Translations under genes and position numbers: made by a program
Notes under the pieces: model-generated
Seen by the model: only the letters and a program-made list of their open reading frames with translations
Told to the model about the DNA's origin: nothing
Databases searched by the model: none
In this document: one piece after another, positions 2,867 through 64,000 of the stretch
Layout: every line of letters begins with the position of its first letter
Position numbering within the stretch: the first letter of the stretch is position 1
Assembly: GCA_050273025.1 (NCBI GenBank)
Contig: CP158635.1
Location: 1,984,001-2,048,000, forward strand
Origin: Cenococcum geophilum
Taxonomy: Eukaryota
Direction of reading: 5' to 3'
DNA: 64,000 bases

Positions 2867-3307
2867 AGCAGGGCACGATTTAGCTTCAGCTTAGAGTCGC
2901 TAAGGCCTACCTCAGTCATTCTTCGCCGATCTATTATAGTTCTTTAGTATTTAATAGATTAAGCCTTACCAAGTACGCCTTGCTATAGAGGCGTTAACGG
3001 AAAAAGAACTCGTTCCTTAGCGGTATTATCCCACCGTCTTAAAATCCATGTCGATTAGCGTAAGGCGTAATAAGAAAGCGCAGGTATTACTACCTAGAAG
3101 GATTAAAAGGACCAGGTGGCTCAGGTGGCTTAGGTGGATTAGGTGGATTAGGTGGATTAGGTAAATTAGGTAGATTAGGTAGGTTAGTTTAACGCGCCAA
3201 AACGACTAGCTGCAAAGAATACGCTAAGCCGAAACGTGATTAACGTTAAGGCATTGCGAATGAAGACCCATAGAGATTTCCTATGCTTCTTATAAATCGT
3301 AGCAATA
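2867..3307 (+). repeat. Direct repeat, copy 1 (~440 bp; partner 5007-5522), containing a 9-bp AGGTGGATT tandem array
   Basis: Colinear with 5007-5522, differing almost only by C/T and G/A transitions. Confidence 0.95.
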
Positions 3308-5006: not shown

Positions 5007-5522
5007 AGTAAGGTACGATTTAGCTTTAGCTTAGAGTCGCGAAGTCTACCCAGTAATATTAGCGGTTAGGTTAAGTTAAACTAATAAGAAAATGCTAACC
5101 TAACCGCTAATATCACTAGGCTTACCTCGGTCATTCTTTACCAATCCATTATAATTCTTTAGTATTTAATGGATTAAGCCTCACCAAGTACGCCTTGCTA
5201 TAGAGGCATTAACGGAAAAAGGACTCGTTCCCTAGCGGTACTCTCCTACCGCCTTAAAATCCATGTCAATTAGCGTAAGATGTAATAGGAAAGCGCAGGT
5301 ATTACTACCTAGAAGGATCAAAAGGACCAGGTGGCTTAGATGGCTTAAGTGGATTAAGTGGATTAGGTAGATTAGGTAGATTAGGCGGATTAAGTAGGTT
5401 AGTTCAATGCGTTAAAATAACTAGCTATAAAGAATACGCTAAACTAAAACATAGTTTATGTTAAGGCACTATAAATAAAGACCTATAGAGATTTCCTATG
5501 CTTCTTACAAATCGTGGCAATA
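5007..5522 (+). repeat. Direct repeat, copy 2, carrying an extra 72-bp hairpin insertion
   Basis: Aligns to 2867-3307 except for the insertion at 5049-5120. Confidence 0.95.
5049..5120. mobile_element. 72-bp miniature inverted-repeat insertion
   Basis: 25-bp terminal inverted repeats: cccagtaatattagcggttaggtta and taacctaaccgctaatatcactagg (2 transition mismatches). Absent from the paralogous site near 2911-2925. Flanks tcta/ctta against empty-site ccta suggest a ~4-bp target duplication. Confidence 0.75.
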
Positions 5523-13114: not shown

Positions 13115-13116
13115 TA

Positions 13117-13599
13117 CAGTAATATGCACGACTAGCTTCCACCCCTCTAAAAAAAAAAATTATTTCGCTTCGGTACGCGGGCTCGCTAAATCGCCACCAA
13201 CTGTATATAGTAATTGTAGCGAACGCATGTGCCTGCACGTAAGGACCTTTTTAATTGCCCTAAAGAATCGCCTTAGTTGGCCAGAAGAACCAAACTAAGG
13301 ACGTACGCGCCCTCCCCTCCCCTTTAACTGCGCGCCCCCCCGCTATGCCGCCAAAACGCGAATACAAAGTTATTCCTACAATTGCCGATAAAATTTAGTA
13401 ATATTGTACTGGTGGAAACCTTATGATATTTAACAAAGATCACGATACTATAGAGGAAGGCCGATTGCGAAGTCTGCTAGAAGTAAAGTTCTTACAGCTA
13501 AGTATAGGCATTTGCTACGATTGCTAGCGAGCCCGCGTACCGAAGCGAAATAATATTTTTTTTTAGAGGGGGGGTGGAAGCTGATCGTGTATATTACTG
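13117..13599. mobile_element. Non-autonomous Tc1/mariner-type DNA transposon (MITE), 483 bp
   Basis: ~72-bp terminal inverted repeats (CAGTaatatgcacgactagcttccacccc...cggtacgcgggctcgcta and its reverse complement ending ...atattACTG), flanked by TA at 13115-16 and 13600-01. Confidence 0.9.
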
Positions 13600-13836
13600 T
13601 AATAGTTCGCTGTTACCTTATACTAGGGAGCAAAATACCCTAACTAAACTATCTTATTGCCTTTTTGCCAAGGCTTACTTCTTTATTGGCTAAGTCCTTA
13701 ACTTTTAGTACCGGTCTGCGCTAATCCTGTATTATATCTTATCTACTTATAGATACTTTACCCTATATTAGCTAGTAAACATTAAAGCAAGGCAGCGGCT
13801 TAACTACTTTAGATAATATTCTATAAATATAACATA

Positions 13837-26739: not shown

Positions 26740-27990
26740 ATTGTAAATCAATTAGAACAGCTTTAAACTCATCTAGCGATGCCCTAAAATTCTCCCTGCC
26801 TATACGAAATTCAATTTCCTACACCTTATACCAATACGCCTGCCCGTTGCCTTTAAAGGTTACTAGAACGTAGCGAATTAAGGACATTAGCTAAGATACA
26901 AGGCCGATTATTATTATTCTGCCGGTTTATGCTTTAAGGTGTTTCTATAACTAGTAAAGGATAACGTTCTTTAAAGGTGTATAGACGGGACACTTATTCT
27001 TATCGTTATTAGGTCTGTACCGCTTATAGAAGGAATAAATATAATAGTCTACAGACTATATGGATTCCCCTATGCTATAAATATCTTTATACTAAGCGCA
27101 TATTTCAGATAACAAACCGGTTATAATTAATGGCGAAGGAGCTAGCTGCTTCCCTCCTCTTTTATTGCGGACAGTTATAATTAAAATTACTCTTTCCAAC
27201 TCTGCCTGGCCTATATCCTTTAAGAGTCCTATATAAAGTGGCTCTTCAAGCCAGCGTAATATAGTTAAGAAATTCTGGTCGTTTATTAGGTTAAAGGCTA
27301 ATATCTTAGCCTTATTATCAGCCATCCGCGTGAGTAATTTAGTGCGAGTAGCATTATCCATAAGTACAAGTGCCTCTTTTTTGTCTAAATCAGTGTAGAG
27401 ACGGGAGTATAAATTATAGCAAGCATTATGCTCTATATCCCTAAGGACATCCCTACGATAAACTGCATTTAATTGATAATATAGGCGAAAGCGCGTATTT
27501 GGGTTATCGCAGCTATAAAACTCTTCTTTAAGGATATCCATTCTGGAGCTAGTGAAGATATATTTGTTAGGTGTTACTTGTAAAATCTATAGAAATAGAA
27601 GAAGTATACTTTAATATCTTAGCGATTAACTAATAAGTTAGGTCTTTTATAGTAAATCTACTTTCTAAAGTAAGTGGTAATTCCGAGGAAACGATTGCGT
27701 AAAGCCCTCAATTTTCAGAGGGGAGTATTTTATTGGTGTAATGGGTATTTCTAGGTACCTAAAGCATTGGCGTAAGCGAGGTCGACGGCTAGGACTGCTG
27801 GTTATAATATCATTATATATATCTAAATAGGTTTAAGTATATACTAGCGGACATGCTCTATAGAGACCAGGAATATCTTTATAATAATTAAACGCGCATC
27901 TATATCCCGATAATTATATAGTTATATATTAGCCTAAGGATATTCTAGAACCGTAGCAGTTATTTGCTTTGCCGCGAAACTCACCATAGA
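26740..27990 (-). pseudogene. Tandem paralog A of an unknown protein (Cys cluster near C-terminus); includes ORF 27092-27541
   Basis: Aligns with 28480-29800: SILLLFL*IL, MDILKEEFYS vs DILWEQFYS, LYSRLY, a CP.C-type motif, and YWYKV. Confidence 0.7.
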
Positions 27991-28479: not shown

Positions 28480-29800
28480 ATTAACCAGAAGAGAGTTAAA
28501 AACTTTAAGATTATCTGCAAATACATTACCGAAATAACTTTTTAATACCTGCACCTTATACCAATACATCGGCCCGTCCTCTTTAAAGAGTACCAGGGCG
28601 TAACGAATTAAATTATTCGGCTAAGAGATAATGCCAAGCACCATTATACGTGTAGGCTTAATTGCTATAAGGTAATCCGACGATTAATAAGAGATAATGT
28701 TCTTTAGAGGTATACAAATTGGGCACTTATTCTCATCTAACTTATATTACTAATAGACGGTATAAACCTTACAATCCGCAATCTATTAAGTTTCCCCTAG
28801 AGAATATATATCTTTACAGCCATTGTATTATTTAAATAATGGATCGACCGCAACTAAACACGGATAATAATAACGACTCAGATTCCGTACCTTAAGAATC
28901 GTAGTTATTCTTCCTAACTCCCACTCGCTTATACAGTTAAGGACTCTTATATAACGTAACTCTTTAAGCCAGAAAATTGAAGTTGCAAGCTATTGACTAG
29001 GTATTAGGTTAAGGGTTAATACAATCTTCTTATCAGTTATGCCCATAAGCAGTTTATTATAAATAGCATCGTCTATAAGTATAAGCGCATCTTTTTAGTC
29101 CGCATCGCTGTAGAGGCGGGAGTATAAATCACAGCAGATATTAGGTTCTATTGCGTTAAGAGCACCTTTACGGCAAGTTATATCTAATTAATAATATAGG
29201 GTAGGGCGCGTCTTAGGATTATTATAACTGTAAAACTGTTCCCAAAGGATATCCATTCTATAATTGCGGAAGATGTATTTACTAGGTATTACTAGTAAAA
29301 TTTACAGAAATAGAAGAAGTATACTTTATATAGGTAATTATCTTTACAATTTATTAATAAATTAGGTCCTTTATAGTAAATCTACTTTCTAGGTTAAGTA
29401 GTAATTTTAAAAGAGCAATTATATGAGGCCACCAATTTTCAGAAGGAAGCATTTCCTTAATATAATAGGTATTTCCAGGGGCCTAAAGTAGCTTCGGTAT
29501 TAGTTAGTAGTAGCTATTAATGGTTATAGGCGTACGCGTAGTTAATAGTCTCTAGGAGATAGCCAGGGAAAAAAGGGTCAAGAGGTTCACTATTAGGCGT
29601 TCTCCGCACTGCTAATTATAATATCCTTAACTAAGGATCCCTAACTCCAGCTCTATATTTTAGCGCTCCTATCCCCTTTAGTTATATTATACCCTATAGC
29701 AGTTTCTAAATTCTTTCCTAAGGTCTAACACGACCTTAAATAATTAAGTATAATATTTAAATAAGTTCTATATTTAAGAAATTGGAATAAGTTATAACAT
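28480..29800 (-). pseudogene. Tandem paralog B of the same unknown protein
   Basis: DILWEQFYSY...ICCDLYSRLYSDAD*KDALILID...DCKVY...KCPICIP...VLGIIS*PNNLIRYALVLFKEDGPMYWYKV. Confidence 0.7.
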
Positions 29801-33889: not shown

Positions 33890-34399
33890 TCATTCCCAAC
33901 AGTATAGCTAATATTTTATGTTTAGGTTCCTTTAAGGCAATGCCCAACTTGTCTTATAAATAGTGAGAAAAGTTAGGTAATTCCCGGAAAAGACTATCCT
34001 TAGTACGGTACTCCAGTAAACTATTTAGACTATTTAGTAAGTACCCTTTCCCGGCAATTTCTATACAAGTTGGCTAATAGATAAAGTACCTTAAATATAG
34101 GAGATTAGGCAATTTGTATACATTAAAGGCTTTAAACCTATAGGAGGAATATATTACTGCTAATTACATATAAGAAATGTACAGGACTTAGTTGTTCACT
34201 ATTTATTAACCCTTAACATTATTGCTAACCCGCAATTTTGTTCCCGAAACTCTTACCTAGTTACTCCACCATAGTTAAAACTGTGAAACCGTCTCCCCCC
34301 ATTTCAGCTCTACCACCCTCCTATACGGCTTCATTTCCAGTAAACAGTAAGAAATCTTTATTTAGCAAGCTCGCTATCTCCCCACCCTCCTACACATCT

Positions 34400-35150
34400 G
34401 CATCCTCAGTGGATGGATACTAATCTTCCTTTAGAAAATCTACTTTCTTCAAACCTTAAAACCACTCGGCTTTAGAAATAGAATAGTTAATAAAATAAAG
34501 ATCGTCTCTTTCCTTATCTAGGAAGAGATTGAGAATATAAGTCTCTAGAAGGCCAGAGAAAGCTTTAAGCACGCTAAAGAAAGGCTCCCCATCTTTGCCA
34601 ACCGTAACCCTACTATCTATATTTACCATTAACTGAAGTTCTTAAATAATATTCGGGCCAAAGCAATATACATTAGTATCATTTCTACCCTTTAGAGAAT
34701 CTTTGGCAATTTTTTTAACCTCCTTTATAAGAGCCTCCACGCCCTATGCCTCTAAATATATTTCAAGCTTCTTAAGAGTAAAGTCCCTTTCCTTTCTAGT
34801 TTTTTTAGGTCCCTTTAAAAGAGTCTCTACCTTAAGCCTGGGACTATTTATAAATAGGTACTTAGTTATACGCTCAGCAACCTCCCAAAGTAGTATAACC
34901 TCGCTTTTTTTATAGATGCCGATCTCCTGCAACAGTTTTTGCTATACAAATATAGCCGGTTTCCATGGTTCCTGGGTTTTATCCTTAAATTCTAAACTAT
35001 CGCTATCCTGAAGAGGATAAGGAGGAGGAGGAGGAGGAGGAGGAGAAAAAGGTGGAGGAAGTAGAGGCGGAGGCGGCGGTAGTAGTAGTAATGGCTGCAA
35101 TAGAAGAGTTATAATAGCTGCTTTAGGAAGAGGGTTAAAGGAGATGCTAA
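34400..35150 (-). pseudogene. Hypothetical protein with poly-proline tract; includes ORF 34744-34932
   Basis: The (GGA)n run at 35019-35045 reads as poly-Pro on the minus strand, in frame with ORF 34744-34932. Confidence 0.45.
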
Positions 35151-35739
35151 TAATCTAGGAAAAGAATTAAAGGTAATTCTAATAAGAAGATAGACTAATC
35201 TAGGATATTTAGGCTAATTTATAGATAGGTTATCTAATATCTCTACGAAAAAGAGGGGCGTGTAATGTAGTGAGATTATTATAACGCTGTTTATAGCGTC
35301 CTGTAAAAGACTTATCTTAAAAGCTAAGTTATAGATATAGCTTATAAACTATGACAACTTCCTAAAAATATAAGGATACTTTACTACCCAATTTTTAATA
35401 GGGAGTTCAGCCGGTTATAGGCATGCATATATATACACTAGTGGAAAATATATAAAAGGTTATATACTTAAAAGTCTATAGAACTTAAAGCGTATATAAT
35501 ACGGATAAGGTCCCTATAGGGGTATATATCACTTCGCTCTCTAACTATACTCTAGGCGTTAAGAAATATAGGGACGCTGTTAGTATTACGGGTAGTGAAG
35601 ATAGGCGAAGGTTAAAGTTTTATTACTATAGGCGTTAAATAATAAACTTTGTTTACGGATATCATATTCTAAGGAAAAATAAGATTTATTTCTTAATAAG
35701 TATAGAGATAGGGTGGGGAAATAGCTTACTAATCCAAGC

Positions 35740-36560
35740 ACTTAGTTCTTAAGATTTAAGGCTAGCCACTATTTAGAGCTTTAGGTCTCCTAAGTATATA
35801 AAAGGGTAAATATAAAAAATCTAAGTCCTAAGCACCGCCGCAGCTTTAGGCCTAATAAAGTACCTAATTATCAAGATTCCAAAACCTACCTATATACTAG
35901 TCCAAATAAAAGGGTATAAACAAGTACTTAAAGCCCCAATCGCCGCCGCAGCTATAGGCCCACCAAAGTGCCCGGCTATTAAGGTTTTAAAACCCATATA
36001 TATACCAGTCCAAACCGCACCACGAACCACTTTTATAAAATCTTAGTCAAGCTTCATTATACGCTTCCCTAAACCATCCAGAGCTAATCCTCTATCCTAT
36101 ATATATAGAATACAATTAGACTAGCTCTTACACCAGACCTAGCGTCCATTATGCTTAAATTATGCCAGGATCTTAGTACTATGGTTACTCGTCTAGCGGA
36201 GATAGTCTAAATATTAAGTTATATAACTTCTGAGCTTAGAGTATGGGCTAAAATAAGTACCAATTATCTTAACAACCTATAACTTCGTTAATTTCGCTTA
36301 GTAATCATATAGATAATAGCCTTACTTTAACTTTTCCTAGCTCCAGCTCTAAAAACTCTTTAAATTCGTGTAAAGAAGCCCTATCTACCTTAGAAATGTT
36401 CTCTCCGTCTTTAGGGACCCAACTGCCCAGAAACACCATATTGGTTATTTGCTCCATAATATACTCTAGCAGAGATAGAATGTACACGTTTAAGAGAAGT
36501 CCTTTAGTTATATTTATGTGCACCTCCAGCCACTAGGGCACAATTCTCTATATCCTCCCC
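35740..36560 (-). pseudogene. Hypothetical protein with a C-terminal duplicated 36-aa hydrophobic Gly/Ala-rich unit
   Basis: ORF 36305-36523 continues through RIP stops to VWTGIYMGFKTLIAGHFGGPIAAAAIGALSTCLYPF / IWTSI*VGFGILIIRYFIRPKAAAVLRT*IFYIYPF, a 108-bp duplication. Confidence 0.55.
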
Positions 36561-36569
36561 TTATAACGC

Positions 36570-37068
36570 AGCGAGGCAGAAAGTTAACCCGGTTAAGAGC
36601 AAAGGCGCTACTAAGAGCGCTAATATAGCTATAGCTACATTAGCGCTCTTAGTAGCGCCCTTTATATAACCGAGTATCCCTACAGAGACTCCGCGTTGGG
36701 CGTAGTAGCCTACTAACTTTTAAACCGTTCCTATACTTCTATTAACCCTTCCCTAGTAGGACGCCACCGTAATGCAATCCCCTATAAGAGCGATTACGAC
36801 ATCCTTAGAGTTATGCAAGCCACGCTTAGGATACTTCGTATCGATCTTTTAACCCATAAGATACCTATTTAAGAGGAAGTATAAAGACATTTTACGCCTT
36901 AATAAAAATTAATAGGTCGCTTTAATAACCACTAAGTCTAATATAGTTTCACCTCTACGGCACTTAGCTCTAAAAAAAGGAAATAAGTGCTTACCATCTC
37001 TTCTTTAGGGAAACTAATATTAGCTTCTAGGAGGGAAATTCTTAATTAGATGTGTCTAAATCTTAATA
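36570..37068 (+). repeat. Segment R copy 1 (499 bp) with loop-less palindrome at 36601-36663; bounded by GC dinucleotides
   Basis: Aligns with 40943-41359 (transitions plus internal indels). Confidence 0.9.
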
Positions 37069-40000
37069 GCAAACCTGTCCCTCTTTCCGCTCCAAAATTC
37101 CCTCAGCCTTTACCCTCTCTTTAATATCTCAGCTTTCTATACAAGGCAGCGTATTAAATGGCTTCAAAAAAGGGTATTAATAATAACTAGAACTAGAGGT
37201 TTAAAAGTAAACGTAAAGAGATTTTCCGTATAACATTCGCTGAACCTAAGTCTATTAAGGTTAGGAGCTATTCTATACATATATCCTACACTCTAACTAT
37301 TTTACAGATAGAGAAAATATTAGCCTTTTGCCCTAATCCCTCGAAGCTATGCAATTCTTTAGTATTTATACAGTTTACCTAAAATGGGCTGTAGTTAGAT
37401 GGTTACTAGAAGTTATAAAACTTAGAGTTAACGAATAATTAGACGGAATCACTAAGAATAGACGAGATAGACGATTTCATTAGTTAGACGGAATTACTTA
37501 AGTAAAACGGATACTAAAAAGATCAATACGGAGCATAGAAGAAGATACTATCTTTAATAGCGGAAGCTGGGCCGTCCTAGTTAACTGCAATAGAGGACTT
37601 AAGTAGCTAATAAGGGACTTCGACAGGCATAGAGGCTTAAGACGTTAGCTTTGCTTTAATGTAAAAATGCTATTAAACTAGAACCTAATATCGCTATACC
37701 CTAGCCATTAGGAGCGCAGGACGCAAGCCATTAAATACAATATGGCGTTATTATATTGCCGTAGTGTTCTGAAGTTACTGCTAGTAGTATAGTAATGCCT
37801 AGATATTAACCTGCTTAACGGTAATTAGATCTTACCCTCTTTTTAGGAGCTCCTCTTTTTCGGTAAGGCTGTTATATAGTAGCTTCATTTAATTCTACAA
37901 TCTAATAAGTCATTATACGCCAGCAGGGATCGCGATCGGCCCTTTAGTACGCTACTTTAATAACACAATAGGGTGCATAAACTTCGTCTAATTAGTTTAG
38001 GTACATTCTTTGTCAAAGGAGCGCTGGCTATAGTAGACATCTTTACGGCTATATTAAGTTTCTCTTTACTGCTTACTTTTACTTTGCAGAAAACATCTCC
38101 AAAGCTCTAAACTGCTGCTAAGGTTCTGTATAGTACGCTCGATCTTTACCCTATTTATATTTCCTCACCCGTTTAAGTAGTATGGTTGAAGCTTATACAA
38201 GACAGCGCTATGCGTTAAAGGAGCTTTTTTACGGCGACAATTTAAGAATAGGTAAGCGGTTCGTCCCTTAAGGTATACAACTCCCTAAAGTAAGTTTGCC
38301 TTCTAGGGCGAAAAGCGATCTTCTTATATAGCGGAGATGGTGGGTACGCTTATAGTAGGCTTAAATGTAATTATATATAATAATAGTAGGGCTAACTAGA
38401 TAATGGATGTTAGCATTAAATAGACTAACCTTTACCAAAAAGGCGGCGATAGAACAACATACAGGCCATAAGGCAGCGGGGAGGTAATCTAATTAGAGAC
38501 CTGCTCTACGCCGCTACTAGGCTAGTTAACGTTAAACAAAGAATATTAAGCAACTAAATTACAGCGGGTGAAATATAGGCTGTCAGCAAAAGGTTTAGTT
38601 TAAGTATCTATATAATATCTATCTATTAATAGTTCCCCACTATATAGCTCTAGAAGGCGAGGTATCCACTAACTATTAACACTATAAGGAAACCCACCGA
38701 ATACTAAACTGCCACTTCCCTATATAGTCTCCCTTTAGAATATATATTCTTAAGTTGCCTCTTATAAACCCTCTATAGGGTTTGGCCGCATGCCGTAAAA
38801 CCGGCGAGATAAGCTTTTCGTAACGTAGGTTCTGTGGAAACATTAAAAGTAAAACCCTCTACTATATTAACTAAGAGCTCCGCACCTTGGCTTATATATA
38901 TTTTATCAATAGTAAGGGTCGCTTAATACTTGGTTTCTTAAAGGGTCACCTCTACATCCACAAAATAGGTGGTAAAATTTATATTAGACACCTCTGTAAT
39001 CTACAACATTAGGATTTTATCCTCTATATTAGATAAATAGGGGCCCTACTTTTAGGGATAGAATCTCTTCGTCCTTAAATGTTCTATAATTTTCAGACGC
39101 AATAAACTTCTTATAGCTCGCAACGCCTAATACCCACTCGTTTACGGTAGAATCTATTGTATTAGGAAGGGCAATAGTAATTTCGGTAGAATGATAAGAT
39201 AATTTTCAAGGCGACAGAGATAAAGGTCTTGTATAATTAAAGCTAGATACTAAGGAGGGTTTAAAGAGCCTATTTATGCGTGTGCGGGTCAGGCTAGATT
39301 GACTAAATACGGCCCCTATCTCCAACCTGGTATTACGGATACGTATACTATCTTATAGTTTCCCGACAAAAGCATGCGGTATAATGTAGTTGCTGCGGAT
39401 GACAAAGACCGGTAAATGCCTATATGCGAGGCGTTAAGCCGAGACTGTAAACAGGAGGGTACTACGATGCATATTCGGAGGCTGTAAATGGACGAATACT
39501 GCTTACTTCTAGTCATGCTCTAGATAGTGACGGAGTGCGAGATGATTAATAAGCAATAAAGGTTAGGGATGGCTTAAAGCCGCTATAAGATGAACGTAAC
39601 TGCATAAAGCGGGGCAAATGCGTATAGCTAGCATGCTTATTATTAGGAGGTCACTAAAGGAGGTCTCGCGGCCAATTCATTAGACAATAATAGTACTTAA
39701 GTAAGCTAGATGCACTTTAAAGTATACTCTAAGCACTAGAAGAGAGTAGATATATAATAATATACGGATGAAATACTTATAGATAAGAACTATCCGAATA
39801 TGGGCTTAGGTAAAAGTGTTTATCAGCCCTCCGGTCGTTTGGTATTACTCCCACTATATAATAAAATTGCCTTTTTATGGACTCTAGGCAAGTCTACCTT
39901 AGTTTCCGATAGCTAATAGTATAGGCTTCCCACTAGTACCAATCTATGCTTTTCACTTCTTCTGTTTAAAGGCCCACTTTAGAAAATAACAGCAAATTGC

Positions 40001-40942
40001 ATTTTCCTTCCCGCTGCTGGAATTTTACTACTATCCAAATACGTATAGCAAATAGTGCTGCGGTATATTTAAATTGTATTCTACGGCGCTCTTAATTGCC
40101 GCGCTTAGGACATCGGAGAAGTTTTTAGGGATTATTACAATAGCAGATAATAAGCTGTATAATTAAAATGTCGTAGCTTACTATAAAGTATAAATACAAA
40201 GCGTTTAGGGTTAGGGAAGAAGACCTTACCTAGTACGACTTGATTATTACTACTAACACCTCCTAGTCGCTCTTAAAGTCATAGACCGGAGGAAAAGTTT
40301 AGAAATTAGGCTTTCTAGCCAATGTAATAAAGCGGTAGTTCTAGTAGGTAGAAAGGCTATTTCTAGTAATAAGAAGCCACGATATTGCTACAGCGGCTAA
40401 TAGTTGGTAGAGAGTATTATAGATAACTCCTTTAACGGGCTACGCGAAAAGCCTATTTATATTACGCGAGAGTACTCTATATAGCGTTCAGATACATTAA
40501 GGGGCAGTTTAGCCAAGTTACCCTTTTCGGAATATCACGGTAGGTTTTAGGGCATTTTTCATTATTAATCCCACTCCTCTATACTAAATGCCCGTAGAAG
40601 ACTAATTAGGTATAGATAAGCTACAACTAGTAAGCAGGAAGGCTACGGATTAAATAGGCGGTAGAGGTATATATAGTTAAACGTAAGGTACGGGATGCCT
40701 ATAGGGTTAGCAGGTATAGAAAGGTGCGAGCTATATAGCTGCTTACTTTTAATTGCTTTTAGGGTTTAGTATTAACTCTAGAGGTCTTCTAGTGGTTTAT
40801 TTATATACTAGTCGGTAAATTACAGCAGTGGTTATAGTAGTGGATTCTCCTTTTAGTAATCGCCGTCGTTTAGGGGGATTAGGGGCATAAACATATTTAA
40901 TGAACTTCGTATCTCTCTAAGTAAGAAGAGGAATAGGTTTAC

Positions 40943-41359
40943 AGCGAGGCATAAAGTTAACCTAGTTTAAAAGCGAAGGGCGCTACTAAAAGCGCTAATA
41001 TAGCTATAGCTATATTAGCGTTCTTAGTAGCGTCCTTCGCACGACCTTGAGTACCCCTGCGGATACTCTCTTTTACACCTATTCCCATACAGTAGGACGC
41101 CACCGCAATGCCCATAAGCCTTCGGCGATCGCAATCCCCTATAAAAGGGGATACCTATTTAAGAGAAAGTATAGAGACCTTTAACGCCTTAACAAAGATT
41201 AATAGGTTGCTTTAATAACTACCAAGTTTAGCATGGCTTTACCTCTACGGCACTAAGCTCTAAGAAAAGGAAAGAAGTGCTTACTATCTCTTTGCTAGGG
41301 AAGCTGGCGTTGGCTTCCGGAGAGGGAAGTTCCTAATTGGATATATCTAAATTTTAATA
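40943..41359 (+). repeat. Segment R copy 2 (417 bp) with 68-bp palindrome at 40973-41040
   Basis: Aligns with 36570-37068. Palindrome arms are 34 bp with three transition mismatches. Confidence 0.9.
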
Positions 41360-42257
41360 GCATCGTAAGGGGAGGATAAAAACTTGGGGGTATATAGAGA
41401 ATTGTACCCCGGCGGCTGGAGGTATATATTAACTATAAGTTGCCCCGTTGCCCTAACGCCTCGCTAATTTTTCCTACCTTATATTCTCCCACACTTATAA
41501 TATTTACCCTATTTCTATAATATTAGGCCTAATACTATATAGATCCTACTTTTATCCTTGCTGGTATTACAGTTCTAATTTCCGTGCCCGTAGTAATATT
41601 TAGCTATTCTACTACTACTCAAAATATCTATTTTATAGAGTCTCCGAAGTTCGTTTATTTGTAGTAGCCGTAGGTTTTTCTTATCGCTGGTTATATAGGT
41701 TGTTTCTTTACTGTCATTATAGCAGGTATATTTATATTATTAAATTGGGTAAGGCCTAAGGAGTAGGCCTATTATGGCTTTACAAAGGCTAGCTTAATAC
41801 TGTTGTTATATAGCATACCAGTTCTTAGTCTACTTTTTCCATCGTTGTTAATTTGCGAGCTGAGCCTATAAAACTACTAGGATCTAAGATACCAGCCCTT
41901 CTCGTATATAAAGCGTCTAGGTAGGGTAATATGTCTCCGTAAACCTAGATTGCCAAACATAGCGTATTAACCGTAATAAGTATATAAGCCCACCTCTATA
42001 TCCTTGCATTCCCTATAAGGAGCTATAATATTTACCAATTATAGCTTTTCTAGAATGCGTAGATCGGACGGGGGTGTTAAATATCTTAGTAGAATAGTAG
42101 CTTGCTTTTAATATATACGAAAAGGGGAAGAATTAGCCGGCTTAGCCTATAATTATACTTGCCGTTAGATAGGGTTAAATTTAGATATAATAGAGAGTTC
42201 CTTAACCTTAGATTTATTCTGTTAGGTTAAGCAACACTCTATTAGCTCTAACAGAAA

Positions 42258-45050
42258 ATGAAAACTACTCTTCCTTTTTAATAGCCTCTTAGCCTTTATA
42301 CCTCTAATAGGATGCCTTTAGAATCCTCTCTAACGTACGTTACTTCTACGGGGGCTCCTAAGGACTTAGGCACGCTATAAGCCCCACCAGGCCCTACTAA
42401 TGCGGAATAGTCGTTAATGTTTTCTCTTATTAACTAGTATAGCAATTATTTCCTTTATCCGATTATCTTGTGCCTTATATATAAGGTATAACTAGCTAGA
42501 CATTTCTAGTGCTTACGTTTACCATATTTAGACGCTGCGAAATACCATATTAAAAGGGTTTAAAAATCCACAAACTTGTAATACTATTCTGAATTACAAA
42601 TTCTATTTAGAGGATAGAAAGGGAAGGATCATTCCGCTAGACGCTTAGGGACCATTTACAATAAGATATATAGAGAAAAGGAAGTCGGGCAAGGTTATAA
42701 GAATTATAGTATCGCCCCTATTTTTCACCCTTGTGGTTAATAATACTCTATTACGGGTTGTGTTACCTATAAACTTATACTGCCCTATTAAGGTATGTTA
42801 ACTCAAACTTGGTATAAGAGCCATATCTTACCACTATTCTAGGGCATGCGTAGGGCCATTCTCTACGCCTTATACTAGCTCTATAGGGATATGGATATAA
42901 ATATAATTAAGGCCGTAGAACAAGATCGGTACCAGCTTAAGGATTAATAAAGTACACTCGTTCTCCCAGTATGCTTTAACTACCTAAGTGGCATAATAGT
43001 TAAGTTGATTATATCTAATTCGTGTAATTCTGCGTCTCCTACTCCACCTCCTACTTTACCTCCTACGCCAGCTCTATCTTAAGCTTCCTCTCCTACTCCA
43101 TACTATCTGCCTTTAATCGTCACTTAGACAGAGATACTAGTTATTGTTGTTAATTAAGAATTATTACCTAGGATTGGTGGTTATGGCAGTAGATATATGT
43201 TAATTGTAATAGTTGCTAAAGCTGCATCCGAATACTTGGGCGGGGGTCATTATATATAGAAAGAAGAGGCAAAGACTCTCCTCAATTAAGTAAAGAATGC
43301 TACCAAGTATTGTATTAACAAAATGGATAACACTAATTAAGGTAGCTATAAACCAGGAACTATACGACAGCTTTAGTTAGTAATTAACCTCTTAAAATAG
43401 GTTAAGTGCCAGGGATTACGCGGTAAACTATTAACCTTTACTTTACCTAGAAATGGCTCAGACTATTATATAATTAGTATCCTTTTAGAGGAACTAATAG
43501 ATAACCTTTTTATTATAGATTGTTAGATTCCTTAAGGGGAGTAACATTAGGGGTTAGATCTATTAAAGTTCCTTATAGGAGAAGATGGGAAGATGGCCTT
43601 AGAGGAAGACGGGGAGTTAGTCTTAGAGAAAGACGGGGAGTTAGTCTTAGAGGAAGACGGGGAGTTAATCTTAGAGAATAATCTTAGATAATCTTAGATT
43701 TTCAATGCGTATTATTTTACTCCTATTAGAGGTAGAGGAAGACGTGCCCTAGAATAGGTAGTGCGGAGGACGTTTAAGGAGGCTATAAAGTTTGGGTATA
43801 CTAATGTACCTAAGGCTAGGCAGCTCCTCATTATACCTATAAAGACTAATCGCTAAATCTAATCCACTTTATTAAAATTCCTAGCTATGACCGTAGATGC
43901 GATTGCGGGACTGTTATAGCAGTTATAGAGTGCGGTAATTGCTAGGAAGATTGGGGTATATTAGTTAGGACAAGTAAGAATAAAAGGAGACGTAAAGGAG
44001 ACGTATATAACCTGACGCATCCTATACTAAAGCATTAGCTACTTCGCTAGCAAACTATTCTATACTTATAATAACTTATAATTAATAAGGTTATACTAAT
44101 AACCATCCTCAAGTTTATAGTCTGTTACCTTACCCCTTTAAAGTCCAACTATTTTATAACCTAAAAGGAAGAATGGTACGTCTAGCAGTTAAAGTAGTAG
44201 TTTAAGTATGGACTAACATTCCATTATAAAGGCGTAGGCTATGGCATCTAAAGACGGTCTCTTAAATACTAATTATAAACAGTTCTCTTACTAGCTCTTT
44301 AAGTGTCGACTAGGGGAAATATACGACCTTTTAATGGGGATACTAAATAAAAAGAACCCCTAAGAGGCGTAGGGCCTTATAACAAGTCTTTTAAAGCTTA
44401 TTCGGTGTACTTATAGTAAGATCGGTAATAAGACTCCTCTACTTAGGATACAGGTCATAGCGGAAAGCTTTAAAGCATATACAGATATTTGCAAAGAAGG
44501 CTACGACGCAGAGAATACTAGGGGGTTCTTAAGGATTATAGAATGCGCTCTTAAGGTCGCTATGGACAGAACGCTCTACTCTAGCAGTGTTCGCCTAGCT
44601 ATGTTAGATAATCTACAAGATCTACCACTTGTCTATATAGGAGGGCTCTCCAATTCCCTAGTATTTCAATTATAGCGGCTAAGCTACAACAAATGCCCCG
44701 GGGGCCCCCTGAGATACTTTAAGCTTTAAATTCTTAACGCATTCTTAAACTGTAATCCAATTTTTGTTTTAGAGGATTTTTATAATCTAAGTAAATAAGA
44801 AGAGTTTCTAAAAACCCTTCCCTAGAGATGCCTCCGCGCAAGAAAGGACGGTAGGGTTATTGTTAGTATCGTAATAGTAAGCGGCTTAAAAGAAGAGTCC
44901 TTATTTAATAGCGATAAAGGTACACGCAAACCTCACTTAATATTAAATAATTCGCTAATAAAGTTAACAGCTTATCTTAAATACCTTAAAGAAGACGTTT
45001 AAAGCCTAAGTAAAGACAGAGATATGGGGGCGCTTAAGTTATACCGTATG
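42258..45050 (+). pseudogene. Large hypothetical gene with possible fungal ubiquitin-like domains near the N-terminus
   Basis: Long reading frames with RIP-type stops and an intron near 42793-42842. ...K/GMRRAILYAL...IKAVEQDRYQLKD**STLVLP... and ...FYLEDRKGRIIPLDA*G... resemble the fungal ULD_2 pattern (GMxxLI...VxxGxYxL....ILP..W). Confidence 0.4.
43575..43677 (+). repeat. 24-bp tandem repeat (~4 units) encoding LEEDGELV-like units
   Basis: ttagaggaagacggggagttagtc-type units at 43599, 43623 and 43647, plus a degenerate unit at 43575. Confidence 0.9.
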
Positions 45051-47172: not shown

Positions 47173-49236
47173 GATAATGACTAAGGCGCGTATTTAACCA
47201 AAATGGTTAAGAGTAATAAAGGTAAAGCCGGAGCAAAACGTGTAGAGAAAATTTAGAGGAGAGGGGCCGTAGGAGTAGGAGAGAAGGGATTATTTAAGAG
47301 ACCGCTATACGCCTACGAGTATTATTAGTATAAAATCTTAAAGTGGTAGTTAGGGCAGTAAATGTCATTAATTGGCCTTATAAAGTAATGCGGCTAGAAA
47401 AGAGATAAGGGAAAGTTTAGGGGGGAGACGGCGGTAGCGGGAAGTGCAATAGAGCTTAGGGTGTTAATATTAGGTTAAAAGATAAGGGCGCGCCAAACTA
47501 TAAAAGGGCAGTTTATGTAATGCGCAACCATAACGATTAGCCAAGCCGTATAATACTCTTATACCTTAAATAGATTATTAGGACCAAATGCTGCCACTAA
47601 GGCATTCTCTTAAGGTAAAAGTAATAGTCGCTAATATAAGTACAACCTATCTACTATTTATTTGCTAAAGTAATTTAAAGATTAACTCCTAGCGTCCTAT
47701 AATCCAATAGGAATAACAGCTGCTTAAATACCTACTATTTACTAAAACTTACCGCTTGTCTCTTAACAGACTGTTATAGCATTTAATAAGACTTATAGCA
47801 ACCTAGACTTTTAGGTTAGATAGTTTATACCACGCCGGGAGGATATATTATACCTTATCTCCCTTAAGATACATTCTAAACGCAACCTCAACTAATAGTT
47901 TCATAGCGTCCTCTATTATTTTAACCCTTTACTCTAGGGTTTTACCTTATTTCTATAGTTGCCACTCTATTAACCAAATTAAAAAAATAGTTCGGAGGGT
48001 ATATATACCCGTAAAGCTATAAGCTCCGCCTCCATACTCTCCAGTTTCTCCACCCTTTACTATAAGGCTACCCTTTCCTTCTGCGGTTACCGCTTATTAA
48101 ATAAGGAAAACACTTTACAGGGGTATATATACCCTTTTAACCGCTAACTCATCCTCTAGACTTTCTATATATAGAGTGGGAGCATATAACTCTTAATCTT
48201 AATTTTCAGAAATTTAACTAGATGCCTTACTATTCCCACTAACATTAGGGTATAAGAAGTTCCGCGTAATCGAGCTGTTAATAGATATATCCTATAACGA
48301 ACAAGTTAGGGGGTTGCTTGGAGGATTTAGGGGGGCAAGGAGATATTAAAATACTTACTGATGTTAATAACTAATAACATTCTCTACGTCGGTAATATAC
48401 GTAGGTGCATTACTATCATTAGAAGACGGTTAAAAAGCCATTCTATAAATCGAAAGGTTAATGGAATTGCTAAGAGCTAGTTAGGTACCGAGCGTGGCGT
48501 TATATATTCGGTAGCTGCCCCTTAAGTATTTAATTATTTAATAAGAGCTTCCCTTATAACATTTTTATAAATAAGTAATATAGGTTATTAGACAAATGTT
48601 ATAAACCCCTAGTATAGGAGCAACGACATAAACAGCTGAAAAACGTCTAGTAATATAAAATAGCGTAATTAACGGGCGTCGCTTAGTGTTAGGTAATAGT
48701 ACGCAATTACCAATTCTCCCTTAATGTCCTACTCTGCGCCACCACGTCTAATATGCGGTGAAGGTACTTTGTAAAGTATAGAAAAGCTTCGGTAGGGGGC
48801 CAGCGTTAATATAATGTAGGTTAAACGGAGTCTACGCTTATAAATAGGGGATGATCTTGGCTGTAAGGGATCTGGCTAATCTAGCCTAGCTTATGTAATC
48901 CTAGCCTATACGCGGCATAGTCGTGGTCCGCAACCACCTAAGAGAAAACCCTTACTAGCTTAGAGGAGCTAACCCTTGTAAGGCCCGTTAAATAAGCTTT
49001 AAAAACTAAATTACAAAGCTTACCATGCTTATTATCTTAGGTAGAGGGGTAGGTAAGGCAAGTGAGGTAGATAAGGTAGATAAGGTGGGTAAGGTAGGTA
49101 AGTAGGTGAGTAGGTAAGTAGGTAAGTGGGCGAGGTGGTTATAGCCATTCCTATCTTATTAGCTTGTTAATAATATAAAGATCCTTAGGGATTCTGCTAT
49201 AAGAATATACCTAAAAGCATATACATTAGCCCAAAA

Positions 49237-52899: not shown

Positions 52900-54106
52900 T
52901 CCGCCTAGAGATTAACGTCTTGCTAAGTCGTAATGTTTGAGAAATTTGCCGTGCGTGCCGCCCGTGAAGATCCACACTTAAATAGCATATTCCGCGCGTC
53001 TAACTTCAAGCTCGTCCTCAGAAAGGCTTTATAAAGCTATCTATCTATCTACCTCTTAAGTGTTCTATAATTTCGTTTACGAGTTATAAAGGAGTAGATT
53101 GTCCTCTTGGAGTTATAGTAATTTACATTATATAGCTATAATAGTACGGTCTCTCCCTCGGCTATCCTTAAGGATTTTAATATATCTTACATAGCTCATG
53201 CCCCTTAAAGCTTAATATAAAACGATAATTTCTTCTAATTTCGGCCACTTTTTGCCTAGTATAGTGGTAGTAAAGATAATAAAGATAAAATTAAACTTTA
53301 AGCTACCCAGCCTAACCTTTATATACGAATTGGAAGTTGCCACCCGCCCTAGGGTTAGCCACTTAAACGTCTCTAAGATGCGTATAACGGATGACTTACT
53401 AACCACCCTACGTAAACCTACCAGAACTAGCTTCACCAATTCGGTCGGTAATGTCCGATATCGCGGCATGAACCTCAAGTATCTAGGGTAGGAGCTCGTT
53501 AATATATCCTTTAGTTTCTACTATATACCTTTCAATTTGCTCTAACTTGTCCACAATAGAAAGCCAAAGTTGCTTTACTTACTCCTATAAGCCTTTTAGC
53601 TAAATAGGGACGTCTTATAAGACTGCTAGCGATTTGTCTATAGGCTATATAACCTACGTCTGCGTTAGTAAGTTATCAGTGCCATTAATATCTAATAAGT
53701 TAGGCTCATTCTATCAAAGCCCCCCATCCTTATTAACTATGCCGCAGCACTAATCTAGTATAACAGGATGTCCGCCTAAGCCTTTAAGCCATATTTCTAG
53801 ATTGCTTTCTTCCCACTATATATTCGCAATATATACAGGTAAATTCTCTAGGGGCTTTAATTTAGGCTCCTATATCGTTCTAAGTTTTAGGATCTCTAGA
53901 AAAAGAGCGTCCCAATCTTTAAAAAAGATATTATTATCTATACTCTCTATTACTTTAAGAGTAGTAGAAACGCTTTCGTATTACTAAAATTAATAATATA
54001 TTACCCCTCTGGACCCACTCACATATAATATCCCTAACCGATATCTTTCGTAGCTAGTCGCGTATGTAATTCGCTCTATTCTAAACGGAGATATATAAAC
54101 CCCTAT
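52900..54106 (-). pseudogene. Hypothetical gene, paralog of 62118-62450; includes ORF 53212-53478
   Basis: PVYIANI*WEESNLEIWLKGLGG vs PAYIANMQ*EEDNLETWL*SLDG in the other copy; the nucleotide sequences align at the 5' end. Confidence 0.5.
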
Positions 54107-59800: not shown

Positions 59801-61034
59801 AAGGCGTGCATGTTAACAAATACGAGAAGCGTCAATATTCTATAAATCGATATCTTTCTAAAATAGATATCGATAAAATAAACAAGTCCTTATCATAACA
59901 AACACATTAAGAGCATTTAGCTAATTAGCGATAAGAACATATATACCAATTAGTAAATTTAGAAAATTCATTCTTCTTAGCATGTCTTAGGAAAAGCTGG
60001 TATTCGTTTATACTTATAACCTCTATCTAGGTGCTAAGAAGGCTTAAGCTTTCCTACTCTCTTAGAAACTCTACTAGCGACTAATTAAAGTAGGCCTCTA
60101 TCCAGCCTACCTAATTTAGTTTTAGCCTGCTAAGTAAAGACCAAATAGACCCCCTTTTATGCCTCGCTTAGTCACCACACCTCTTTATCTCCTGACCCTC
60201 CCGCGTAAGTTCTACGGCCGTCCCATTCTCGCCTATTTTAGCACTCCTAAGAACTGCGACAAATTTGTAGTAGCTTACTATATAAGTTTAAATTAACACC
60301 TTTGTTACTAAGTAATCAATTACTCCACTAGAATAATATAGGAATTTACATTACAATAGGATGTTAGTGTCAAAGAGACTAATTTAAGAAATGATAACAA
60401 CCACATCAATTATAAGGAGGTTCGCTAGTAATATATAGAAAGGCAGCCATTACGTAGGGCGAGGCTGGCTACGCCTAAAGGGGCTAAGGATGCACGCCGT
60501 CACTTACATTTTCCCTAGCTTATTAACTTAAAGCCTTTACCGTACAGACTAACCATTGCGCAGGGAAATACGTTTAGATTATAAGAACTTTTAATATAGG
60601 CCAAAACGGGGTATGGGGAGACATTAGCAGGTATATAGAAATAATACAGATAAGGCAGTTAACGTGGATTAGGTAGGTTAGGTGGATTAGGTGGATTAGA
60701 TAAATAATAAATTAAATAGGTCAATACTAGGTCCACGTATATAGGGCTATAGCAGCATTTAAATCCGTATAGCTCTTTTAAATATATAAAAGAGATCTAT
60801 AGGGCTTATAGGCCCCTCATTCTAAGGCTTACTCTTTTAAGGCAGATTTAGGACTCTAAGCCCTCTATTACAAGGTAGGAGTATATGTTCTTATAAAGGA
60901 GAAGACTATAAAACGACAACAGCACCTACCTAAAAAATATAAAATTACCTACTGTCTTCTTTATGCAGGACTAATAGGTAAGGCTTTTATTCTGTATCTA
61001 AGTCAATCTATCCCTACGCTTCTAGTTTATCGCT

Positions 61035-61322
61035 ATAAATCCAACTAACATCTCGGCTAAATCTACAGCTACAGCCCCAGTTGTCTCAACTCCTACTAAA
61101 CTTTTTACCAACTGTACGCCTACCATCCTAACCATTATAAGTCCTACTAGGATTATTACTAAGTCTTCGGCTATAACCCCAACCAACATCTTAGCTAAAT
61201 CTATAGCTATAGCTCTAGTTATCTTAACTCCTACCAAACTTTCCGCCGACTCTACGCCTACTATCCCAACCATTATAAGTCCTACTAAGATTACTATTAA
61301 GTCTCCGGCCACAACCCCGACC
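61035..61322 (+). repeat. 138-bp (46-codon) tandem repeat, 2 full copies plus a partial
   Basis: Units start at 61035, 61173 and 61311 and differ mostly by transitions. Confidence 0.9.
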
Positions 61323-61958
61323 ACTATAAAGCCTACTACGTAGGATATACACCTAGGCTTTTCTATCTGCCAACCACCAAATATAGCTCCTCTTACTAGC
61401 GGATCTGTCTTTCTTACTAGTAGTATAGAAATGGGGAAAGCGCCTAAATGGCAAAATGATGTAACGAAGCGCCTTAGCTTGCTCCCGATTACGGTTCTAA
61501 ATCCACGCTAGGATTACTGCAATGCCAATCTTAAGTAAGATATTAGTAACCCGGAATTCTGTAGGCAAGTTTAATAGGGGCTTAAATGCTAGGAGAAGGC
61601 CATAGTAATCGCTATATATCTTTATCCGGGAACCAATTCCTCAATAAGTTTGATAGAGCTAGGATTGTTTATAAAAACTAGGAAAATGGTAATTTGCTAC
61701 CCGGATGGTTTTTATAGGAGAGGCAATGTGTAGGTTATGTGCGGTGAATATAGCGGAAAGCTAGTAGAGACGTTAGATAAACTGGTTAAGGAGGTAAAGG
61801 ATAGAATAAAGTGCTATAAGGGAAGCAGTAATAAGAATACTGTTAAAAGACATATTAGCTGGTTTAATCGTCTCTACTAAAGCTGGCGACGACTAACCTA
61901 CTTGGTTTGCTGGAGGAGTAGACAATGCGAAAAAAGGCGAAAAGCTATAATTGTCTAA
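61035..61958 (+). pseudogene. Nucleoside 2-deoxyribosyltransferase-like protein (Nuc_deoxyri_tr2/PF15891-type) with Thr/Pro/Ser-rich N-terminal tandem repeat
   Basis: SVFLTSSIEMGKAPKWQ (FLAGSIEMG), ITVLNPR*D, DISNPEFCRQV**GL, PGTNSSISLIELGLF and VICYPDGFYRRGNV*VMC. Confidence 0.85.
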
Positions 61959-62117: not shown

Positions 62118-62450
62118 ATAGGGGGTGATATATTTTTATTTAGGACGGAGGAAATTACGCATACGGTGAACTAAGAAAGACGTTAGTTATAGGTATTATA
62201 CGTATTTAAGAGATCCTAAAAACTAGAACAACGTAAAATGCCAAACTAAGGCTATATGCCAATTCACCTGCATATATCGCGAATATGCAGTAGGAAGAGG
62301 ATAACCTAGAAACATGGCTTTAAAGCTTAGACGGACGTAGATTAATGCTGCGGCATAGTTAAGGAATAAGGTGATAACCTGTCATAGATAGGCTAGTAAA
62401 GCCATCCAAGTATTACAAAGCAGTATTAAACTATCTTCGGGTAAACTCTT
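62118..62450 (+). pseudogene. Internally deleted paralog of the 52900-54106 gene
   Basis: Shares ctgcttatagggg, agagatcctaaaact and tagatta(a/g)tgctgcggcatagttaa with the reverse complement of 53730-54110. Confidence 0.55.
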
Positions 62451-64000
62451 TAAAGAGTATCCCATGCGCCGTTAAGGCGTACGCCAAAAGAGGCCTATGC
62501 GCGAACACTAAAATATTAACACGCTCCTCCGAGGACTTAATTCGGCTGTGCTTTATACAATATACCCCTTTATAAAGAAGGACCTTGCTAGCCTAATTAG
62601 CATACAATAGAATCAATTATATATAAATTTTAAGCTTTATTATAACGATTTAGAGCCTTAATTCGCTGATTAAATTTACGACTTTATTTCGCCAAGACTT
62701 AATTCAATCTAGTGACTCTAGTTGGTTTGCTTGTGCGTACGCCTTTTTTAACGGCGTATAGGATAGCACCACTATTACCTAGTCCTGTTTTCGCCGCGTC
62801 TCGCTTCTTATTGAATTCCCTAAAGAAATTAGATAAACGAAGCGCATTTAATTTCTTTATTTATCTAGTTTACTAAGGGGAACGAGAGTAATAATCGCAT
62901 TGACTCGTATAAACCATTACCTGTATAGATTGTGACTATTATATAACCCCACTTTTATGTAAGTAAGCACGGATAAAATGTACGTCCCCTGCTTTATCCC
63001 TGCTGATCCCTTATTCGTAACTTGTTTAGTAAAAAGCCCAGCGCATAACAAATGCAACGCGTATATTACGGCACAGCTTTTATAGAGCAGAAAGCCGAAG
63101 AGCCCATAATGATAAGAAATCTAAAGCACAATCTTACCTCTACCAACCCGCAACCGAGCGCGAGCGTTAACTACGGCACAGCTTTATAGAGCAGGGGGCC
63201 CAGGAACTTGACTTTTCTCTTAGAATTTCTAGACCACTTTTACGATTTTTGCGGGTGAGCTGCATAAATTCTCTATTAAATGACGTTTATTCTTTAAAAA
63301 AAAAATTCTTTATTAAACACGCCAAAAACTCCAAACCGCCGTCCTCTGGTAATCTATTCCTAAGCTCTTGTTAAACTATTAATCACTTAAGGAGTAGCTA
63401 CCGAATATATAAGGCACGCTCCACACTTAACCAGCTATCGTCAGTTCTACCAACGTTTTAATTTACGGAATGGCTTTCCAAAAATCGCCTACGGAGGGTA
63501 ATATGCCTACGCATACCGCCGATGCTAGAGAAGTCAATACATACAGCTTCTTATACTGCTTTATTAGTGGAAATGGTATAGCATCTAGCCAAACCTCTAA
63601 CACTTAATATCCAGATTTATATACCTCCACTCTATTTATAGAGGGCCTAGAGGATATATTAGCGCTTAAAAAGGTATATATGCCTCTTAGAAGTATTCTA
63701 CTTATTTAACAGAATGGTAACTATAGGAGGAAAGGGTAGCCTTAGAGCAAAGGGTAAAGGTACTAGAGGGTAAGTAGGAGAAGCTTATAGAATTAGAAGT
63801 ACGCATATCCCTATAGGCCATTTTAAATTTGGCTAATAAAGTACACCTATAGAAACGGAATAGAGTTTTATGGCTAAGAGTTAATACAATAGAGTCTGTC
63901 TTTAAAAATGTAATTAAGTTGGTGTTTAAGAAACATATTAAAGAGGATTAGGTATAAAATATTCCTCTAGCGATATAAACAGCCTAACATAAAATAATAG

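Follow-up and report, generated by a model that had tools for sequence, protein, structure and literature searches.

A core segment in opposite orientations between the same flanks in a multi-copy repeat of Cenococcum geophilum decayed by repeat-induced point mutation

The window analysed here is a stretch of 64,000 nucleotides (64 kb) from Cenococcum geophilum (assembly GCA_050273025.1, contig CP158635.1, positions 1,984,001 to 2,048,000 of the forward strand), within which a core segment of about 0.5 kb, R, occurs twice on the same strand, at 36570-37068 (copy 1) and 40943-41359 (copy 2). R sits in opposite orientations between the same two flanks, X and Y, with clean breakpoints, and the similarity of both flanks lies far beyond chance. 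The surrounding DNA is a multi-copy repeat altered by RIP, the repeat-induced point mutation of filamentous ascomycetes. The explanation that we favour, and to which we give about an even chance, is that R was inverted once, long ago, in one of two inverted copies of a module, and that the result was later amplified and subjected to RIP. All positions are those of the window, and a prime marks a segment in inverted orientation.

Results

Geometry of R and its flanks

The two copies of R form a direct repeat with a spacing of 4.37 kb and an identity of about 83%, with indels. Both BLAST and repeat finding aligned 36569-36691 with 40942-41068 at 82.7% identity (E 6e-29) and 36860-37071 with 41150-41362 at 82.6% identity (E 4e-57), the middle of R being disrupted by indels between the two copies. 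The ends of R read (G/A)C-AGCGAGG...TTAATA-GC; copy 1 is bounded by GC/GC and copy 2 by AC/GC. The flanks resemble each other in inverted orientation alone, and their comparison in direct orientation revealed no similarity. For X, positions 36508-36559 match the inverted 41386-41438 (79%, E 1e-5), another block of 19 nt without transversions adjoins R, and X of copy 2 contains an insertion of about 14-16 nt that is specific to subtype 2 of R (described below). The transition-tolerant local score for X was 74 against a null of 22.9 ± 4.6, and one of 3000 random pairs of 110-nt stretches of the window reached 74. For Y, the 24 positions next to R (37069-37092 against the reverse complement of 40919-40942) contain no transversion and the similarity ends beyond them; a transversion-free run of at least 20 was found in 0 of 2,000,000 randomly anchored pairs from the window.

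A preliminary description of this DNA had already reported R on the same strand in both copies with its flanks swapped and inverted, clean GC/GC and AC/GC breakpoints at which R is turned round exactly with respect to X and Y, a likeness of Y that differs by transitions only, a likeness of X with an insertion of about 15 bp, and R without terminal inverted repeats (TIRs). All of these observations were reproduced here, and the randomised comparisons answer its call for a formal check of the significance of the flanks; the arm containing X is in reality longer than described, at about 175 nt.

A palindrome, P, of 62-68 nt that is perfect or near-perfect lies 31 nt from the left end of each R copy. 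As single-stranded DNA it folds with a computed energy of -31.9 kcal/mol (z -8.2) at 36601-36662 and -30.3 kcal/mol (z -8.4) at 40973-41040. A second, decayed palindrome of 20 nt is found about 40 nt from the right end of R. The ends themselves were checked for TIRs and have none: in both copies the left site agrees with the reverse complement of the right site at 20 of 42 positions when scored as purine or pyrimidine (null 20.9 ± 3.3), and only the GC is shared. R thus has no paired recombination sites.

Sequence context

The window is uniformly AT-rich, with a GC content of 32-39% in every 2-kb bin. For the window as a whole TpA/ApT is 1.52 and (CpA+TpG)/(ApC+GpT) is 0.65, with similar values in all eight 8-kb bins. 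The usual thresholds for RIP are a TpA/ApT above about 0.89 and a (CpA+TpG)/(ApC+GpT) below about 1.03, and since both indices of the window are beyond these thresholds, RIP is indicated. Contigs from a public run, X1, differ from 36300-41700 by transitions at 995 places and by transversions at 50, with similar ratios in three further runs (X5, X7 and X9). The hallmarks of a RIP relic, namely transition-dominated differences between copies, the RIP indices, a multi-copy state and lost reading frames, were all found.

The 64-kb window contains a single open reading frame (ORF) of at least 120 amino acids (27092-27541, 149 amino acids), which matched no Pfam family. A tRNA scan of the window found no gene and an Rfam scan found no family at gathering score. 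The preliminary description had reading frames running outward on both sides of copy 1, but these are absent; the longest ORFs in 35.8-42.2 kb measure 50-66 amino acids (ATG starts, standard code). When 33-45 kb was translated in all six frames, X standing for each stop, and searched against Pfam, no family was found, recombinases included, and a de-RIP consensus of 33-43.5 kb, built from up to five aligned copies, contained no ORF above 112 amino acids, results to be read with the caveat that RIP decay could conceal a former recombinase gene. R and its surroundings are RIP-mutated, non-coding relic DNA, and there are no genes beside R to switch.

A multi-copy family with a larger unit

In order to place the two copies in a wider sample, contigs of four public runs were positioned on 36300-41700, these being X1, probably the sample from which the window derives, and, from three other samples with another organism label, X5, X7 and X9. 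In each of the four runs, contigs 80-99% alike cover all 30 bins of this interval. In addition, metagenome contigs were scanned for a pattern of 26 nt taken from the palindrome arm, which yielded ten loci (L001-L010). The R family is present in seven of them (L001-L005, L007 and L008), and the other three have the palindrome only and represent a different family, Q (L006, together with L009 and L010, which are parts of one contig). The R-family loci are collinear with the window well past R and its two flanks, over roughly 34186-43023, and the whole stretch of 34.2-43.0 kb exists in multiple copies, both in this genome and in those of other strains.

Using the segment names of Table 1, copy 1 is arranged as A-u-L2a'-X'-GC-R-GC-Y-M1 and copy 2 as M2-Y'-(A/G)C-R-GC-X-L2a-L2b. 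In other copies X runs outward for about 100 more bases (L2a, 41439-41535), which gives the inverted arm its length of about 175 nt. Segments u and L2a' are present in L001, L002, L004 and L007, and are missing from window copy 1 and from L005 through a deletion of about 260 nt between two 10-nt direct repeats; a joint of 36519 to 41495 on opposite strands, seen in three of the four runs, fits undeleted copy-1-type loci there. Y extends to about 31 nt in L008, and window copy 2 has a small deletion at this point. After M1, an unrelated segment Z of about 440-600 nt follows in L002, L003, L004 and L007, with L2b coming next in L002, L003 and L007, whereas the window, L005 and L008 carry on with M2 rather than Z. 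Segments u, Z, 41536-41649, M1, M2, A and L2b were compared for shared sequence at which recombination might have produced the short (M1-Z-L2b) and long variants, and internal palindromes alone emerged. Consensuses of the loose ends of the run contigs had no match in the window and do not show the left and right flanks of the 4.9-kb unit to be contiguous elsewhere.

Several further features of the family were recorded. Locus L003 (364-2967) has A, corresponding to window positions 34186-35108, joined directly to M2 (39158 onward); this M2 leads up to the palindrome of an R of subtype 1, behind which comes Y-M1-Z-L2b, so that the locus is yet another recombinant version of the unit. Besides P, the family is rich in palindromes, of about 130 nt (37709-37841), of 60 nt within u (L004, 2672-2731) and of 24 nt (41516-41539), and several of the variant breakpoints lie at or near palindromes. 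Among the loose ends listed, two to four contigs in three of the four runs track R to 41287 and then continue into other, mutually similar sequence, which points to a possible third family sharing most of R.

Two transposon-like interpretations were dropped on the evidence of these loci. P had been considered as the head-to-head junction of two transposon ends, but the sequence outside the supposed ends is the same in all loci. A TIR transposon ending at Y or L2a was likewise abandoned, the outside sequences M1, M2, u, A and L2b being the same in all loci, so that no independent insertions are seen.

The same loci bear on the question of whether the geometry could have arisen by a mis-join of the assembly at the palindromes. 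Palindromes and repeats do favour mis-assembly, and one X1 contig has a 38-nt skip inside P. However, both arrangements recur in independently assembled metagenome contigs (copy 1 in L004, L005, L002 and L007; copy 2 in L008), and an X1 contig that spans the X'/R junction is identical to 36497-36828, with 0 differences. We regard the chance of an artefact as next to negligible.

Orientation of R follows its context and subtype

Nine R copies were compared, namely the two in the window (W1 and W2) and those of L001-L005, L007 and L008. On its left, R is joined to X' in W1, L001, L004 and L005, to X' again in L002 and L007, which lack about 40 nt from the start of R, and to Y' in W2 and L008. 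On its right, R is joined to Y in W1, L002, L004, L005 and L007 and to X in W2 and L008; L001 ends ahead of this junction. In L003, Y' and the beginning of R are deleted and M2 adjoins the palindrome, while Y-M1 stands on the right with a gap of 34 nt at the junction. R exists in two subtypes that differ by several indels, with subtype 1 in all six copies that lead into Y-M1 and subtype 2 in both copies that lead into X. Each arrangement is found on independent contigs, L005 spanning A-X'-R-Y-M and L008 spanning M2-Y'-R-X-L2. The orientation of R is constant for each context and for each subtype in all of the copies seen, and since the subtype indels track the arrangement, one old event accounts for the difference in orientation. 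The consensuses of the two subtypes differ by 21 transversions over 412 aligned positions of R and by 8 over 160 positions of L2a-X, part of the 8 coming from a misaligned tail; judged by these counts, R and its flanks look about equally old.

None of the nine copies has R between unrelated flanks, all flanks being X/Y or M2, and no empty X'-GC-Y site was matched in the window or the ten loci. Together with the lack of TIRs, this led us to discard R as a cut-and-paste TIR transposon or miniature inverted-repeat transposable element (MITE).

The preliminary description had proposed that R is a recombinase-driven invertible promoter module. An active switch of this kind, in which a recombinase flips R at each locus and thereby controls neighbouring genes, shares with the data the geometry alone, that is, the same flanks, the opposite orientation and a 2-bp core. 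Site-specific inversion requires matching inverted sites at both ends and a recombinase. R has neither inverted-repeat sites at its ends, the GC being all that they have in common, nor a recombinase or genes in its neighbourhood, the region is heavily affected by RIP, and orientation is fixed per context in all copies. Moreover, 15 of the 28 joints in the run contigs include, at either locus, no connection between X' and the far end of R or between Y and its near end, the signature of a flipped R. Compared with switches of the Hin/Gin, Fim or FLP type, R is without end sites, recombinase, controlled genes and the presence of both orientations at one locus. The proposal is not supported by these results, and we consider an active switch scarcely tenable.

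Family Q and the polarity of the change

Family Q, a more diverged relative, shares with the R family the palindrome P and, about 630 nt away, a piece resembling L2a'-X'. Q (L006) aligns in a single stretch with X', the GC and the reverse-complemented right end of R, which is the arrangement of copy 2. Against the copy-2 type the score was 249 (null 38.5 ± 5.2) and the alignment extends over target positions 9-357, the junction lying at 176-178, whereas against the copy-1 type the alignment halts at the junction, with a score of 152 over positions 8-162. Q lacks most of the subtype-2-specific insertion in X, opposite which it has a gap of 11 columns, and is therefore not simply descended from the sampled subtype-2 copies. 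Because Q is continuous over the junction between the R end and X, this junction appears to be old sequence and copy 1 looks derived; the comparison thus suggests that the arrangement of copy 2 is the older one. Ahead of the first Q direct repeat, the best candidates for another X-like piece in inverted orientation reached no more than marginal scores (59.5 against 41.9 ± 3.8 and 58.5 against 43.7 ± 4.1).

The direct repeats of Q, as observed in the 7964-nt contig that comprises L009 and L010 and in L006, are 1.75 kb long and lie 4.87 kb apart. Each holds P about 160-185 nt from its end, and neither TG...CA ends nor a target duplication is present. A palindrome of about 200 nt occurs at 126-332 of the contig of L009 and L010.

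With Q at hand, a retrotransposon origin can be weighed, in which the R copies would be the long terminal repeats (LTRs) of an element of about 4.8 kb (R-Y-M-Y'-R) inserted in the centre of a long palindrome (L2a'-X' joined to X-L2a). Two direct repeats of about 0.5 kb at a distance of 4.4 kb are what LTR elements display, a purine-rich run directly precedes R copy 2, X'-GC-X would make a perfect palindrome centred on the GC, and Q likewise has P-bearing direct repeats. R has no TG...CA ends, however, and no TGG resembling a primer-binding site follows R copy 1; the duplication is of 2 bp rather than 4-6 bp, the flanks are inverted and not direct, and no trace of gag or pol was found in the six-frame Pfam search or the de-RIP consensus. 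Retrotransposition would make both LTRs of each new copy alike, yet the differences between the two R copies are kept across loci, W1 grouping by shared indels with the R1 copies of five loci and W2 with L008, so that the subtypes are not homogenised. Finally, Q is continuous over the supposed insertion edge. An LTR origin is accordingly very improbable.

Feature coordinates and other repeats in the window

The coordinates of the features are compiled in Table 1.

Table 1. Segments, breakpoints and palindromes of the repeated unit, in window coordinates
Feature	Position	Strand	Remarks
Segment A, left part of large repeated unit	34186..36492		Collinear with L001, L002, L004, L005, L007; 5 X1 contigs depart from the window at 36492
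X' (inverted X), truncated here	36493..36567	-	Piece of about 260 nt (u and inverted L2a) missing in window and L005
GC, left breakpoint of R copy 1	36568..36569
R copy 1, subtype 1, about 500 nt	36570..37068	+
Palindrome P of copy 1, 62 nt	36601..36662		31 nt from left R end; found also in the otherwise different family Q
Decayed 20-nt palindrome near right end of R	37009..37028		Better preserved in copy 2, 41299-41318
GC, right breakpoint of R copy 1	37069..37070
Y, 22-31 nt, pyrimidine-rich	37071..37101	+
M1	37102..37982		Always after Y in subtype-1 copies; palindrome of about 130 nt at 37709-37841
M2	37983..40918		In window, L005, L008, L003
Y' (inverted Y)	40919..40940	-	Shortened by small deletion relative to L008
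AC, left breakpoint of R copy 2	40941..40942		AT in L008; possibly GC changed by RIP
R copy 2, subtype 2, about 417 nt	40943..41359	+	Subtype-specific deletions common to L008
Palindrome P of copy 2, 68 nt	40973..41040
GC, right breakpoint of R copy 2	41360..41361
X and L2a, full inverted-repeat arm, about 175 nt	41362..41535	+	X = 41362-41438, L2a = 41439-41535
24-nt palindrome	41516..41539		Centre = outer end of X-L2a similarity
L2b, right part of large repeated unit	41650..43023		Collinear with L002, L003, L007, L008
u, 147 nt	not in window		Holds its own 60-nt palindrome (L004, 2672-2731)

Elsewhere in the window, a direct repeat pair of 405 nt (2903-3307 and 5118-5522; 87% identical, 2.2 kb apart) has flanks without an inverted relation, and an 84-nt inverted repeat (13115-13193 and 13518-13601; 89%) enclosing about 490 nt has the look of a small foldback or MITE-like element. 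Three old, diverged pairs are 67-73% identical, one of them direct (26818-27764 and 28548-29488, the first holding the ORF at 27092-27541) and two inverted (47809-48550 and 63362-63994; 53733-53897 and 62209-62362). Short tandem duplications are present at 35798-36013 (108-nt unit) and 61032-61323 (138-nt unit).

Discussion

The observations can be accommodated by a history in which the 34.2-43.0 kb stretch is the RIP-mutated, non-coding relic of a large repeated element, of at least 9 kb, in an ascomycete-type fungus. Two modules of about 0.7 kb (L2a-X-GC-R-GC-Y) lie inverted around a spacer of 3.8 kb, and in the copy-1-type module the 0.5-kb core R would have been reversed once relative to its flanks. 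The likeliest mechanism would be a single event of break-and-rejoin or of replication template switching, in which the palindromic 2-bp GC at both ends of R may have served as microhomology; because GC is its own reverse complement, it would be retained at both new junctions. The rearranged composite would then have spread as one unit to several or many loci and undergone RIP, and nothing would flip today. That R was inverted, instead of being excised and reinserted, and that the GC was used as microhomology are steps that we infer.

Microhomology-mediated inversions arise by end joining or by replication template switching (fork stalling and template switching, FoSTeS; microhomology-mediated break-induced replication, MMBIR). 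They resemble the present case in that one fixed event leaves clean junctions and the joined ends have a short sequence in common, here the self-complementary GC, but the homology amounts to only 2 bp and lies inside a duplicated module. Degraded transposon relics of the RIP type occur in AT-rich blocks of filamentous ascomycetes, and the DNA described here is likewise AT-rich, gene-free, dominated by transitions, multi-copy and a nested mosaic; it differs in that the large unit has no recognisable transposase, reverse transcriptase or terminal structure. The preliminary description had associated a one-off inversion with one fixed orientation and ragged breakpoints. The orientation is indeed fixed, for each context, but the breakpoints are clean.

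Several points weigh against a single old inversion. A microhomology of 2 bp is weak evidence and possibly a coincidence, and clean boundaries that each carry a GC would also result from a discrete cassette whose target duplication or crossover core measured 2 bp. Inversion by itself leaves the sharp-ended duplication of the module of about 0.7 kb unexplained, so that at least two events, or one complex event, would be needed, and L003, with R between M2 and Y-M1 and with Y' and the start of R deleted, requires an additional recombination event. The nine R copies represent about seven lineages, as W1 and L005, and also L002 and L007, share derived deletions, and all of them stem from one amplified composite and are not independent tests of orientation. 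Contigs lose rare variants, and a low level of flipping could go undetected in those of the runs. Lastly, Q is not significantly similar to either type on the other side of palindrome P and informs the X-side junction only.

The cassette alternative holds that R was a discrete, non-autonomous element moved in trans by a site-specific enzyme with free orientation at the GC, now dead and altered by RIP, which was inserted at the GC separating X' from Y in both modules, or left that site and was inserted again. The boundaries are clean and the same in both contexts, and GC stands on each side of R, apart from AC or AT at one subtype-2 junction that may be GC changed by RIP, although a 2-bp target duplication could be due to chance; palindromes lie near the ends of R, and P is found in another family with different flanks. 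A mechanistic parallel exists in the serine recombinases. For the Bxb1 system, the orientation was reportedly ascribed by Ghosh in 2003 solely to the central dinucleotide. In the part of PMC3783163 available to us, serine integrase sites are described as synapsing and being cleaved equally in either alignment, the central dinucleotide alone making one of them productive. R has the 2-bp core in common with these invertases and integrases, and on the same partial source a palindromic core would permit either orientation (PMC3783163), but R is without flanking half-sites, a recombinase gene or signs of repeated flipping, and its context is eukaryotic and affected by RIP.

Against a cassette, no R copy was found with flanks other than X/Y or M2 and no empty site was found in the 64 kb and the ten loci; the orientation tracks the R subtype, and hence at most one event is needed; the continuity of Q across the R/X junction marks this junction as old sequence and not as the edge of a recent insertion; and R is without TIRs and paired sites, with no recombinase found. 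The Cryptons of fungi offer a second parallel, being described, in the portion of PMC3212892 that we could draw on, as elements without TIRs but with terminal direct repeats of 4-6 bp and a tyrosine recombinase gene. R resembles such tyrosine-recombinase elements, as that portion presents them, in having no TIRs and short direct repeats at its ends, but these repeats are of 2 bp, not 4-6 bp, and R has no coding capacity (PMC3212892). We consider the cassette explanation unlikely. A narrower form of it, in which R would be a fossil cassette inserted or flipped at a palindromic GC, before RIP, by a fungal site-specific system without terminal repeats, is quite improbable. The related proposal of the preliminary description, that the same GC target was hit twice in opposite orientations, agrees with the clean GC boundaries but is the less economical account, with Q running unbroken through the R/X junction and no empty site among the sequences searched.

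The flipped R is a fossil in non-coding, mutated repeat DNA and is of little importance in itself. What it illustrates is that a single old inversion within a module that has been duplicated can, after amplification, look like the work of a site-specific switch, and that a census of copies, in which orientation is set against subtype, combined with an outgroup family separates a one-off inversion from a switch. If the cassette explanation were true, R would point to an undescribed, orientation-free integration system in fungi.

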